A stretch of 57,585 bases of DNA, taken from Escherichia phage vB_EcoS_SP8. Location of the stretch: sequence record MT682705.1; one strand, given 5' to 3'. Below are positions 24,268-28,700 of this stretch, in pieces. The position numbers and the translations under genes were made by a program. Numbering within the stretch: position 1 is the stretch's first letter; each line of letters opens with the position of its first letter. Below the pieces are notes generated by a model, which saw only the letters and a list, made by a program, of their open reading frames with translations, was not told the DNA's origin and did not search any database.

Positions 24268-24415
24268 AATAGATCTCCTCTCGAGTATTTACATACGGAA
24301 TTAACTTTATACGAACAATATAGGGCAGGTGAGGTGAGGATATAAAGTGTCTAGTGACGAGATAATCTACAAATGATGAATCCTTGGCAGAGATCTAAGA
24401 GCCGCCCCGCGGCGT

Positions 24416-24488
24416 TACTATAACGTCCCGTGATCGTCAGTGAGGTGATTGTTACGTCATGTGACTGTCATGCGCTCTACTATAACGT
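24416..24488. repeat. direct repeat TACTATAACGT (2 copies about 62 bp apart) in divergent control region
   Basis: read directly in the 24.27-24.87 kb non-coding region; GTGAGGTGA also occurs twice nearby. Confidence 0.5.
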
Positions 24489-24620
24489 TGTTTATTGTTA
24501 CACGCGTTATTATTTTTTATTTGATTAGTGTGCTATCTATTACATGACTATACTATACCGTCCAGTGTAATTACATCTGTTACTATCCACCTGCCCACTA
24601 TATGCTGTCTATGTATGTGC

Positions 24621-24690
24621 TACCTGGTATTTCCGGCGTGTGCTGTTACCTGGTATTTTCAGCACGCTCGCGCTACCTGGTATTTCCGGC
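24621..24690. repeat. three direct repeats TACCTGGTATTTCCGGC at 26-27 bp spacing
   Basis: copies at about 24621, 24647 and 24674 (middle copy with 3 mismatches); upstream of the early promoter. Confidence 0.6.
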
Positions 24691-24768
24691 ACACCATCTA
24701 CTGCATAGTCCCGGATGTTATTATTATGAAACACAACTAAAAAAGTTCTAAAATATTGCAGATAATAG

Positions 24769-24797
24769 TTGCATCTGATACCCTGCTGTCATATTAT
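24769..24797 (+). promoter_or_regulatory. candidate sigma70-type early promoter
   Basis: TTGCAT, 17-bp spacer, TATTAT; followed by a 5' UTR hairpin (AAGCGGG...CCCGCTT) and RBS GGGAGA before the ATG at 24873. Confidence 0.45.
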
Positions 24798-24872
24798 AAA
24801 TGCGTAGGGTAAAGGGGGTTTTAAAGCGGGACACGGGTTCCGCGCCCGCTTCACCCGAAGGGAGATTGCATT

Positions 24873-25178
24873 ATGTCCATTATCTACTTACCGCGTTCTA
24901 TGTCCCAGTCCATGATCACCAAACGTATTATCGGCAAGCGCCTGTATCAGCTGGACCTTACTGCGGAAAAAGTCGACGGGGATTGGGGTTTCGACGAGTA
25001 TTTAGTAATGCTCCCGGGCAACGAAAAGTATTCCAGCACCCCGTTATATATTCGCATTAATGAGGACGGTACTGTTAGCTCTCACGCTGTAATGTACGGC
25101 CGAGCAGTATGCCAAGCGAATAGTCTTTGGTCTGTGTTCTGCTTTATTACAATGATAGCGAAGGCCATTCAACAATAA
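24873..25178 (+). CDS. hypothetical early protein
   Basis: 101-aa ORF, first plus-strand gene; RBS GGGAGA. Confidence 0.45.
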   Translation: MSIIYLPRSMSQSMITKRIIGKRLYQLDLTAEKVDGDWGFDEYLVMLPGNEKYSSTPLYIRINEDGTVSSHAVMYGRAVCQANSLWSVFCFITMIAKAIQQ

Positions 25179-25192
25179 TAGCGTGCTAATGG

Positions 25193-25233
25193 TTGCCCAT
25201 TGTAACAGTGGGCTCCCACTAGCAATCCGCTAG
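25193..25233 (+). promoter_or_regulatory. conserved intergenic hairpin element, copy 1
   Basis: TTGCCCATTGTAACAGTGGGC then GCAATCCGCTAG; near-identical copy at 26738-26779. Confidence 0.4.
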
Positions 25234-25254
25234 AACAACATGGAGATATTCACA

Positions 25255-25734
25255 ATGGTTACTATCACCCGTGTAGCAAAAGACGCTCGCTTCTTCGCCA
25301 CTATGTCTAACGCTCGCCGCGCCTTGAAAAAGGTTCTGGATGTAGACACAGCGACAGCTAACAGCTTTATTCACCAGGAACCGCACGAAGACGGTGGCCG
25401 CTACTGGTTCAGCGAAAGCGCCGTTAATAAGGCGGCTAGCGATCTGGTTGAAGCTGATAAAGCAACTGTCGTGGAAGTGACCACACAACAAGCTCCGGTC
25501 GCTCCCGCTAAAAGTAAAACGCGCAGCGAAACGCGCAACGGGGTCCGTCGCCCGATCAAAGGTAAATGCGCAGACGTTTGGAACGCTCTGGATAACATGT
25601 TACCTAATGGTGTGCCAACTATTGGTAACGTCCGTGACCTTGCGAAAGCTAATGGCTGGAATATTAATAACGCAACGATTGAATTCTACGCATGGCGTAA
25701 ATTCAACGGGCTCAATAATAAAGAGGGCAATTAA
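25255..25734 (+). CDS. hypothetical early protein
   Basis: start at ATG (MVTITRV) preceded by GGAGA. Confidence 0.4.
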   Translation: MVTITRVAKDARFFATMSNARRALKKVLDVDTATANSFIHQEPHEDGGRYWFSESAVNKAASDLVEADKATVVEVTTQQAPVAPAKSKTRSETRNGVRRPIKGKCADVWNALDNMLPNGVPTIGNVRDLAKANGWNINNATIEFYAWRKFNGLNNKEGN

Positions 25735-25812
25735 TTATGTTCTACTTATTAGCGTTCTTGATATTCGGAGCTCCAATAGTTGCGGGTCTGTATTATACGG
25801 AGGGTAAATAAT

Positions 25813-25998
25813 ATGGAAACTATCGTTCTGACTTGTTGGGTTGACCTGGACGATCACGAATATTGCGTGAATATTAACAACGGACCAGTCCCGGACGCAA
25901 CTTTCGCATCCTATGACGAAATGGATGCGTATGTAAAAGGTTTCCGCGAATGCGCTCGCACTGCAAATATTAACGTGACTGTAATTTTACCGGAGTGA
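25813..25998 (+). CDS. hypothetical small early protein
   Basis: start at ATG (METIVL) preceded by GGAGGG. Confidence 0.4.
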   Translation: METIVLTCWVDLDDHEYCVNINNGPVPDATFASYDEMDAYVKGFRECARTANINVTVILPE

Positions 25999-26003
25999 TT
26001 ATC

Positions 26004-26270
26004 ATGCGTAAAGCTAACAAGAATTCTTTCGTTGAAATGGCTCGTGTTGTTCTCAACCGTCAGTCCTTCTACCTGTACCACCGTCACGAATTTGATCTGT
26101 GGACTGAAGAGGAAACGTGCTGCCAGTACGAGATCCATACACGGAATGGTGTAATATTCACTTCCAGTAATTATCCGGAAGTTAAAGAATACTGGGACAA
26201 GCTGATCGCTGAAGCGTATGCTGAATTCCAGAAGCAAACTATTTACCTGATGGGCCTTCGCGCTGAGTAA
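26004..26270 (+). CDS. hypothetical small early protein
   Basis: start at ATG (MRKANK) preceded by GGAGTGA. Confidence 0.4.
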   Translation: MRKANKNSFVEMARVVLNRQSFYLYHRHEFDLWTEEETCCQYEIHTRNGVIFTSSNYPEVKEYWDKLIAEAYAEFQKQTIYLMGLRAE

Positions 26271-26305
26271 TTATTAACGTCAACATAATTTAAGGAGTGA
26301 CTATC

Positions 26306-26554
26306 ATGGCACAAGCAATTATCACCAAATTCCTGGCTCCAACTATGTCCCGTGGCGATCGTGTAAAAGCAACATGTTGGAATAGTTCCGTGACTATTGC
26401 CTGGAGTTACCAGTTGGACACATACGGAAACCACCGCGCCGCAGTGGAAGAGCTGGTCAAAAAGTTAAACGCTAAAATGGACGCCGAGTTTAAGATCGTA
26501 GCTGGTGGAGAGCTCCCGGATCAAAGCGGTTACGCGTTCATCATCACTGCATAA
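26306..26554 (+). CDS. hypothetical small early protein (paralogue-like to 26798..27043)
   Basis: start at ATG (MAQAII) preceded by AAGGAG; similar length and residue pattern to the 26798 gene product. Confidence 0.4.
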   Translation: MAQAIITKFLAPTMSRGDRVKATCWNSSVTIAWSYQLDTYGNHRAAVEELVKKLNAKMDAEFKIVAGGELPDQSGYAFIITA

Positions 26555-26564
26555 GGGGATAATT

Positions 26565-26729
26565 ATGGAACGCAACTATTTCCAGTTTATTTATCGCGGT
26601 CGTTGCTATCACATCCGTAACAAGTTTCGCAACCTGACCCGCGATCAACTTGAGTACGCTATTAATCTGGTGAGTGATGGTCACTTCGCTACACTATCAG
26701 AAGCGTTAGAATATCTGTCCGCTGAGTGA
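26565..26729 (+). CDS. hypothetical small early protein
   Basis: 54-codon ORF starting at ATG (MERNYF) preceded by AAGGGG. Confidence 0.35.
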   Translation: MERNYFQFIYRGRCYHIRNKFRNLTRDQLEYAINLVSDGHFATLSEALEYLSAE

Positions 26730-26737
26730 CATATACA

Positions 26738-26779
26738 TTGCCCATAGTAACAGTGGGCAATAATATGCAATCCGCATAG
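26738..26779 (+). promoter_or_regulatory. conserved intergenic hairpin element, copy 2
   Basis: TTGCCCATAGTAACAGTGGGCAA then GCAATCCGCATAG upstream of the 26798 gene. Confidence 0.4.
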
Positions 26780-26797
26780 TTAACTGAGGAAATTATT

Positions 26798-27043
26798 ATG
26801 CAAGCTATCCATGTAAAAACACTGTCCGCCACCGAAACGAAATGTCGTCGCTATAAAGCTGTTGGCCTTGATATGTGTGTTGTCACCCCCATCGACTACA
26901 GACTCAACAGCGAAGCGAATGCAGCTTATGCAGCGCAAGAGCTTGTGGACCGGTACAACGCTCGCGCCCAGTGGAAGGTTCGCATTGTTGGTATCGGTAC
27001 GCTTCCAGATAATACCTGGGCGGTACTATTAGATAACAAATAA
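26798..27043 (+). CDS. hypothetical small early protein
   Basis: 81-aa ORF with RBS GAGGAAA; followed by a strong intrinsic terminator. Confidence 0.45.
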   Translation: MQAIHVKTLSATETKCRRYKAVGLDMCVVTPIDYRLNSEANAAYAAQELVDRYNARAQWKVRIVGIGTLPDNTWAVLLDNK

Positions 27044-27066
27044 CTTCTAAACCATTATACAATCCG

Positions 27067-27102
27067 CGCCCTGTTGAAGTCCAACGGGGCGTTTTTGTTT
27101 TT
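27067..27102 (+). terminator. rho-independent terminator ending the early operon
   Basis: 10-bp stem CGCCCTGTTG / CAACGGGGCG (one G-U pair), 5-nt loop, followed by TTTTTGTTTTTG. Confidence 0.7.
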
Positions 27103-27596
27103 GTACCCGCACCACCTCCCGCGCTACCCTGCTGACCACATATTCCTCACCCATAACTCCACCATTCGCGCTCTAAGAACCTGAATCCCTCTTCCGTACA
27201 TTACCATTGACTCCAATTCAGTCGCCTTATACGCCCTTACAGTGATCCACTCCCTGCTTCCCTGTACGCGATTTTGCGGCATTTTCGCCCCTCACCGCCA
27301 CCCTTACACCGATCCAACCAGTTAATCGCGCTACGCGCCCCGTTTTCGCGGCTATTTTCGCTTTATGGGCGACCCGTTACCCCGATCTCAGCTACCCAAC
27401 CTCACCGAAAAGCCGGCTTTGCCCGAAAAATCCGGCATTTATACCATAAAATAGAATCGTTTTCGGGCTACAAAATTTCAAACTCGCAAATCGCTTTCAC
27501 TTCGAGAGTTACCTCAGCAAAAATCGCTTGCAATCCACTTTTCTTTTGTGTTAGACGCGCGGACGCGCATTATGCGCAGGCGCCAGGCTCTGCCCT

Positions 27597-28018
27597 GTCT
27601 ACTGACGAGCCAGATTTATAAAGTTAATAAATTCGTATATTTTCGCGTAATGTACGAAATGAAAGGGGGTAAGTGCATGAAAAATAAGGTAAAAAATGTG
27701 TGTATGTGTGTATTTATATAAATTTTATAAAGATTTTTTGTTTTTTTAGTTGTCTACTGACGACCCTACGAGACCCCTTTATAAAATTTATAAATTCCCA
27801 CGTTCCCCCCAACTCTCGAAATTTTCCCTTATTTTTCATACACTTCGCTTCGCCGTTTCGTATGTTGCTGGATCTTTATAAATTGTGCATTTTTTCACCG
27901 ATCTTTATAAATTTGCAATTTCTCACCTTCAGACTGCTGTAATTTTTGCAAAAGCAAAAACTTTGCATATACAAACACCGCAAAATGTCACAATTGCAAA
28001 TAGCAAAAACTTCGCATA
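27597..28018. repeat. cluster of direct repeats in a 1-kb non-coding region
   Basis: GTCTACTGACGA at about 27597 and 27752; GATCTTTATAAATT at about 27871 and 27900; AGCAAAAACTT(T/C)GCATA at about 27953 and 28002; TTTATAAA recurring at least 5 times. Confidence 0.6.
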
Positions 28019-28079
28019 AATTAAAACTTGGCAACTGAATTTCAAAATTAATCGATTTTATTTAGTCAAGGGTGAGGTT

Positions 28080-28700
28080 ATGCGCAATCGTAATATTGAA
28101 ATAACGCACGCACACGTACAGGAAATGTTCGGTTATGACGAACAAATGTATGCCAAAGCGGTAGCCATATTAGAACAGCACAAAGACAGCCTAAGTAATG
28201 TGGTCAAAGCGTGGAAGGAGGCTGGCCTCGTGTTGCGGCCGAATGCGGTCAAGAAGTTAGATGACGGGCGGATGTATATGTGCTGGTCGGCTCCGATGTT
28301 GGGTATGATGTTTACTGTCGACATCTACTTCGGGTACTGGTTGTTAGAGGTGGATTGTGTGATTCCGCTCGACAAGTATATGCACAGTAAAGGATTCAAC
28401 AGTTGCTTTGACGTGTGTCCTGATACGGAAGGCAACGCTGTTATGATCCTGGGCTTTAAGTGGGTCGGCGATAAGTGTGAAATTAGGCCGTTGCGATACC
28501 CGCGTGGTAAAGCCCGTCGTGCATATATTGAAGATGGTGTTGTTGGCTGGTGTGATGTACAGAAGCGTCGGATGGGTGCTAACCACATTGCGCATATCAA
28601 GGAGTGCCTCGTTAGACTTCAGGCGAATAATAGTGGTAATGTGCAGTTACAGCAAGAACTGCAAGAGCTCATTGAATACATTGATCAGTTTGGAGCGTAA
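28080..28700 (+). CDS. hypothetical protein
   Basis: 206-aa ORF, first gene after the repeat-rich non-coding region; RBS GGGTGAGG. Confidence 0.45.
   Translation: MRNRNIEITHAHVQEMFGYDEQMYAKAVAILEQHKDSLSNVVKAWKEAGLVLRPNAVKKLDDGRMYMCWSAPMLGMMFTVDIYFGYWLLEVDCVIPLDKYMHSKGFNSCFDVCPDTEGNAVMILGFKWVGDKCEIRPLRYPRGKARRAYIEDGVVGWCDVQKRRMGANHIAHIKECLVRLQANNSGNVQLQQELQELIEYIDQFGA

Follow-up and report, generated by a model that had tools for sequence, protein, structure and literature searches.

In a 57,585-nucleotide window (the whole stretch of DNA analysed) from Escherichia phage vB_EcoS_SP8 (sequence record MT682705.1), we examined an operon of small genes on the + strand at 24,873–27,043, whose open reading frames (ORFs) are named g1 to g7. 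We found that the products of g5 and g7, starting at 26,306 and 26,798, are true paralogues that diverged anciently, and that both belong to a very large, phage-restricted protein family. The best-supported reading, which we hold with moderate confidence, is that the two proteins are immediate-early accessory effectors with a role in host takeover or anti-defence. Both genes are near-identical to deposited Nonagvirus 'hypothetical proteins' and their kinship is implicit in PHROGs; by itself the finding is modest. The family comprises thousands of sequence clusters with a sharp signature, and has no Pfam entry, solved structure or known function. It recurs among the first genes predicted to be expressed in unrelated phage groups (9g-like, Seurat-like, Chi-like and T7-like), and within one genus it forms islands of allele divergence. 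Together these features are typical of host-takeover and anti-defence factors, and the family is therefore a well-defined and cheap candidate for experimental screening.

Two paralogues and an unrelated neighbour

Positions 24,800–27,300 of the window showed 90–94% nucleotide identity to Nonagvirus phages (BRET, SE1, 9g, JenK1 and others), and the window is assigned to Nonagvirus as a 9g-like coliphage. Nonagvirus phages are siphoviruses of the Queuovirinae that infect E. coli and Salmonella. An earlier note, made from the letters alone, concerned 25,813–27,043, a segment that holds five + strand ORFs (g3 to g7), and claimed that the products of about 80 amino acids from 26,306 and 26,798 share a residue pattern. 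Both ORFs are present, each with a Shine-Dalgarno-like sequence, and the pattern is real: BLASTP aligned the two products without gaps at 35% identity over 72 residues (E=4e-12), and the pattern agrees with this alignment (QAI..K.L..T...R.KA...Y.L...N..A.ELV..NA...IV..G.LPD). When phmmer was run against all 606 six-frame ORFs of the window, each matched the other alone (E 6-8e-8). Both products matched phrog_3199 end to end, over profile positions 1–81 (E 4.9e-33 for g5 and 1.5e-26 for g7), and a hidden Markov model (HMM) built from 81 diverse members recovered them with E 8e-39 and 1.5e-28, respectively. The ORFs are short and unannotated, which would fit the view that the similarity is accidental or that they are not genuine genes; this view is scarcely credible, being ruled out by the pairwise E value, the thousands of homologues in the profile search, a ratio of nonsynonymous to synonymous substitution rates (dN/dS) of 0.21 across six genomes, the ribosome-binding sites and a confident fold prediction (predicted local distance difference test score, pLDDT, 91.6).

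Members of phrog_3199 include 9g gp3 (9g_00036) and gp5 (9g_00034), gp40 and gp42 of Salmonella phage SE1, and Chi gp65. The window proteins are themselves members, and nothing substantive separates them from those of 9g and SE1, where orthologues of copy 1 (g5) are 77–99% identical and those of copy 2 (g7) 96–99% identical, at equal operon positions. Chi gp65 is a fused two-domain version.

The g3 product, starting at 25,813, had been credited with a related TCW-containing N-terminus, and this similarity did not hold. BLASTP gave no alignment of g3 with g5 and only E=1.3 with g7, phmmer found no match to either among the same six-frame ORFs, and g3 matched phrog_5461, not phrog_3199. Its family is narrow (only 3 clusters) and highly conserved (95% among Nonagviruses), and aligning its profile with that of the g5/g7 family gave an hhalign probability of 1–5% over 10 columns. 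We thus rejected g3 as a third paralogue. The tripeptide TCW stands at different positions in the two proteins (7–9 versus 23–25), and its sharing is due to chance. The AlphaFold2 (AF2) model of g3 (pLDDT 52.8) was too poor to use. By eye, g3 resembles the C-terminal third of a 156-amino-acid protein in the same operon slot of a distant 9g-like contig (L099, 3178–3648), and it may be a truncated domain.

Family signature, predicted fold and possible pairing

Word-based searches recovered only Nonagvirus-like orthologues. An exhaustive profile search returned 2,788 representatives of 50%-identity clusters at E<=1e-3, of which 159 reached E<=1e-10; almost all have 75–100 amino acids. By tblastn, the family was found in 252 phage records, every one annotated 'hypothetical', from Nonagvirus, Seuratvirus, Chi-like phages (Chivirus), Vequintavirinae, several Pseudomonas phage groups, T7-like Klebsiella phages and others, and its structural matches in BFVD were phage proteins only. 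A search of genome contigs with a very strict pattern gave 4 loci only and has little bearing on bacterial or prophage distribution. The family consensus is MQAIxTK[YF]LGPTNT[RK]GxR[IV]KA...GS.T..[WY]D[YH].L....NH.AAA.AL..KL.W...G.LPDG.GYAFV, in which R19 is invariant and conservation is 85% or higher at each of I5, T7, K8, T13, A22, H43, A46, L50, G68 and P71. The g5 product is of the canonical type and keeps T13, R19, N42-H43 and the LPD signature, and g7 belongs to a divergent subclade in which His43 is replaced by Ala.

Known domains were not recognised in the family. Pfam gave no match at E<=1 for the g5 and g7 products and none among the 81 members; the window proteins, these 81 members and a further 10 longer fusion members matched nothing in Pfam, NCBIfam or PADLOC, with PADLOC giving no match at E<=0.1 for the window proteins and five distant members. 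PDB sequence searches with two profiles returned only noise. Any anti-defence family (Acr, Tad, Acb, Gad and others) that has an entry in Pfam, NCBIfam or the PDB should have shown up in these searches, and none did. No characterisation was found in the literature on phrog_3199, the sequence motif, Nonagvirus early or anti-defence genes, or Chi gp65. Some metagenomic members carry C-terminal extensions: P0179, P0261, P0194, P0201 and P0244 have paired CxxC motifs that look zinc-ribbon-like by eye, and P0144, P0252 and P0189 have another helical-looking tail in common. Pfam matched none of these extensions.

The AF2 model of g5 consists of five strands and one helix in the order β3-α-β2, and the family members are predicted, with high confidence in the model, to be α/β proteins of about 80 amino acids with this fold. 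The structural resemblances of the family indicate a common β-β-β-α-β topology, not homology. Because loops alternate in this topology, we infer that three conserved elements would lie at one end of the domain: the β1-β2 loop (T13, R/K16, G17 and R19), the helix N-terminus (N42-H43) and the β4-β5 LPDG hairpin. A Gly/Thr/Arg loop beside a helix N-terminus often binds anions or phosphate in proteins, and this was used as a lead.

A different account is that these proteins are HicB/UPF0150-like antitoxin mimics, which would act at an early stage of infection to neutralise a host toxin such as a HicA-type RNase or a toxin of abortive infection. We consider it quite improbable. The family profile compared with E. 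coli HicB (PDB 6hpb_B) gave an hhalign probability of 0.2%, there was no Pfam match either, and HicB membership was rejected on these sequence comparisons. The HicB N-domain and UPF0150 proteins (TTHA1756, PDB 2yzt; B. pseudomallei HicB, PDB 6g1c) have no sequence or profile similarity to the phage family, which differs from HicB in having an extra C-terminal strand and in having neither a C-terminal DNA-binding domain nor an adjacent hicA gene. As to a HicA-type toxin gene nearby, none of the operon proteins had any Pfam match, and no partner recurred in 80 viral loci.

Family domains also occur in pairs. Two separate copies are found in a distant metagenomic phage (L002), and two domains are joined in one chain in Chi gp65 (179 amino acids; L095, 3498–4037) and in P0142 and P0241; the 181-position length of the phrog_3199 profile is probably due to such two-domain members. 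The conserved His is lost in Nonagvirus g7 (Ala), in copy 2 of L002 (Tyr) and in domain 2 of Chi gp65 (Ala). In this small sample, these patterns suggest that the domain works in pairs, of which one partner may degenerate.

Predicted early position, allele divergence and proposed role

The operon of the window and the genes 9g_00038 to 9g_00034 of 9g are collinear. The 9g authors located the physical left terminus of the virion DNA, together with a divergent pair of predicted promoters, in a non-coding region of ~470–600 base pairs (bp) directly upstream, and argued that only this side is transcribable upon DNA entry (PMC4276943). Because of this collinearity and the position of the 9g genome end and promoters, the operon at 24,873–27,043 is predicted to be immediate-early. 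Similar positions were seen elsewhere. The family gene is the first after the divergent region in Seuratvirus Greed, and the third in Chi (gp65). In the T7-like Klebsiella phage RCIP0028 it ranks second among the class-I genes and lies upstream of those for the 0.7 kinase and the RNA polymerase (gene 1). In the metagenomic phages L002 and L003 it heads a series of small ORFs next to the terminase genes; it ends the homologous operon in L099, and lies within long arrays of small genes in large myoviruses. Neighbour clustering of the 80 IMG/VR loci showed opposite-strand terminase genes upstream in 23 loci, with primase and helicase genes nearby. The earlier note's placing of the genes in an early operon is supported, since the operon corresponds to the genes that open the predicted early region in 9g, adjoining the physical left end of the virion DNA. 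Of the three products that it grouped, two are paralogues and the 25,813 product is not a member.

Divergence was compared among six Nonagviruses (the window, SE1, 9g, BRET, JenK1 and HdK1). Every Nonagvirus examined has exactly two family copies. The g5 product is on average 41% (up to 52%) identical to members from unrelated contigs versus 33% to g7, and g7 falls in a monophyletic, long-branched subclade with the conserved His changed to Ala; distant 9g-like contigs have the g7 type only, and Seuratvirus has a single g5-like copy. Since g5 is closer to members from unrelated phages than to g7, and g7 forms a separate subclade, the pair does not stem from a recent tandem duplication.

Both genes form sharp-edged islands of divergence and are by far the most diverged of the operon. 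Mean amino acid identity was 0.79 for g5 and 0.76 for g7 (minimum 0.62) versus 0.92–0.96 for the other operon genes, and nucleotide identity in 100-bp windows was 0.75–0.81 within g5 and g7 versus 0.92–0.97 in the surrounding DNA. For both genes dN/dS was ~0.21, and synonymous divergence (dS) was 0.63 and 0.83 versus 0.09–0.32 in the neighbours. The g7 gene has two allele classes (window/SE1/9g versus BRET/JenK1/HdK1), and g5 of 9g is a chimera of two allele classes. Because a dN/dS of ~0.21 goes together with raised dS, the divergence indicates that old alleles have been exchanged by recombination while purifying selection acted on them, and it reflects neither a relaxation of constraint nor a positive-selection burst. 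The rapid diversification that had been proposed thus stands in so far as g5 and g7 are the most diverged genes of the operon, as expected of arms-race genes, but exchanged old alleles take the place of fast adaptive change.

These comparisons also bear on the suggestion that the proteins are small DNA-binding regulators of the early-to-late switch that would bind, in dimeric form, to repeats of the neighbouring promoter region. The 9g authors proposed such a regulator for gp3, described as 'similar to TetR' (PMC4276943). We nevertheless regard a regulator as unlikely. Pfam gave no TetR_N or other helix-turn-helix match at E<=1, and the predicted β3-α-β2 fold is not all-helical. The proteins differ by 35–38% between allele classes whereas the flanking non-coding and promoter-proximal DNA is 0.93–0.96 identical, so operators do not co-vary with the proteins. 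In addition, the family is shared by phages whose regulation is organised in unrelated ways, among them a T7-like phage with its own RNA polymerase. The likeness to TetR-family regulators lies in the published 9g gp3 annotation only: those regulators are all-α, two-domain proteins of ~200 amino acids, whereas the family protein has 82, is mixed β/α with five strands and one helix, and lacks the TetR_N helix-turn-helix. TetR membership was rejected, and the analysis corrects the published 'TetR-like regulator' label. In the GenBank record of 9g (KJ419279.1; contig L007), 9g_00036 is noted as 'TetR family transcription regulator' and 9g_00035, the orthologue of g6, as 'similar to bacterial oxidoreductases'; no domain search backed either label.

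Genome position and variability suggest instead that the pair may serve host takeover or anti-defence. In this reading, g5 and g7, two anciently diverged phrog_3199 members, would be expressed as immediate-early genes from an operon at the leading end of the genome, and their products would be small non-enzymatic effectors made first after DNA entry. They may bind a target that proteobacterial hosts have in common: a protein of the host or of a defence system, or else a nucleic acid or a ligand that carries phosphate. Binding would take place at the end of the fold joining the β1-β2 loop, the helix N-terminus and the LPDG hairpin, the proteins being conserved there and variable elsewhere. The functional unit is probably a domain pair, here canonical g5 with degenerate g7 (His lost), and in other phages it could be a homodimer of a single copy or a fused two-domain protein. 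Alleles would be swapped between co-circulating phages, with host takeover or anti-defence as the net role. A more detailed version, speculative and unlikely, is that the family is a previously unrecognised and very widespread immediate-early effector class that works as an asymmetric pair of a canonical and a degenerate (His-lost) domain. With the Thr/Arg/Gly loop, a pocket at the helix N-terminus and the LPDG hairpin, such a pair would bind either a ligand that carries phosphate or a component of the host or of its defences that handles nucleic acids; it might, for example, sequester a signalling nucleotide of immunity or block a nuclease that is conserved. Its alleles would be exchanged among phages under defence-driven balancing selection.

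Several points weigh against the effector interpretation. Early timing is a prediction from genome layout, and the idea that the conserved residues gather at one end comes from topology rather than coordinates. No annotated homologue, domain match or solved structure was found for the family, and no conserved neighbour or partner gene was found in the 80 IMG/VR loci. Most of the phages examined carry one copy only, as was the case at all 80 IMG/VR loci (within +/-4 kb), in Seuratvirus and throughout the genome of the T7-like phage, and the heterodimer idea comes from few lineages and a small sample; subtype HMMs did not support domain 2 of Chi gp65 as a copy-2 subtype. The dN/dS values gave no sign of positive selection.

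The closest known parallels of such effectors are by position. T7-like class I genes, for example gene 0.3 (Ocr), occupy the same genomic slot, as seen in RCIP0028 and in the first Nonagvirus operon at the entering end, and also encode small products without an enzymatic signature; T5 pre-early genes and plasmid leading-region anti-defence genes are likened by analogy. Ocr and the class I genes have no homology to the family. The Ocr fold is helical, in contrast to the α/β fold of the family. An acidic DNA mimic of the Ocr/ArdA type was rejected, as the isoelectric points (pI) of the window copies are 7.87 and 9.06, with a family median of 7.98.

Operon features and flanking sequences

The features of the operon are collected in Table 1. 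No Pfam match was found for the g1 product. In HdK1, a terminator is annotated at the position equivalent to that of the intrinsic terminator of the window.

Table 1. Features of the predicted early operon and its borders in the window (mean amino acid identities and substitution rates from the six Nonagviruses).
Feature	Coordinates	Strand	Description
divergent non-coding region	24268–24872	.	~600 bp 5' of the operon; without credible ORF; predicted early promoter region (putative promoter function)
g1	24873–25178	+	101 amino acids; first gene of the operon; mean amino acid identity 93%, dN/dS 0.11
g2	25255–25734	+	159 amino acids; phrog_17772; mean amino acid identity 93%
g3	25813–25998	+	61 amino acids; acidic, pI 4.1; phrog_5461; Shine-Dalgarno-like GGAGG; outside the g5/g7 family
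g4	26004–26270	+	88 amino acids; variable insertion ORF; without family match
g5	26306–26554	+	82 amino acids; family copy 1; Shine-Dalgarno-like AAGGAG; orthologue of 9g gp3 (9g_00036)
g6	26565–26729	+	54 amino acids; phrog_18706; unrelated ORF between both copies; mean amino acid identity 96%, dS 0.09
g7	26798–27043	+	81 amino acids; family copy 2; Shine-Dalgarno-like GAGGA; last gene of the operon
intrinsic terminator	27066–27102	+	operon end; strong; 11-bp stem with 7 GC pairs, then TTTTGTTTTT

Some ORFs of the operon vary in presence between phages. Among the six genomes compared, g4 is present only in the window and BRET. A different ORF of 85 amino acids lies just upstream of copy 2 in BRET, JenK1 and HdK1 and co-occurs with the second copy-2 allele class; the family HMM rejected it as a family member. 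Presence/absence ORFs were located at 26,004–26,270 in the window, at 3494–3751 in L006 and at 3192–3449 in L008.

Inside the divergent non-coding region, three 19-nucleotide direct repeats GCTACCTGGTATTTCCGGC (100%/84%/100% identical, with 26–27 nucleotide spacing) lie at 24,619–24,690, between the area of the predicted early promoters and g1, and may be an operator or a packaging-related array at the physical end of the genome. On the other side of the operon, 3' of the terminator, the region 27,100–28,080 is ~1 kb without a credible ORF and gave no Rfam match. Its AT-rich core (27,600–27,930) holds many direct and inverted copies of CTTTATAAA(A/T)TT and a 24-nucleotide inverted repeat (27,671–27,694 / 27,822–27,845). 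The region, which precedes the next operon, is a candidate for a replication origin or for a regulatory function, and a comparable gap is seen in L099, 3' of the homologous family gene.
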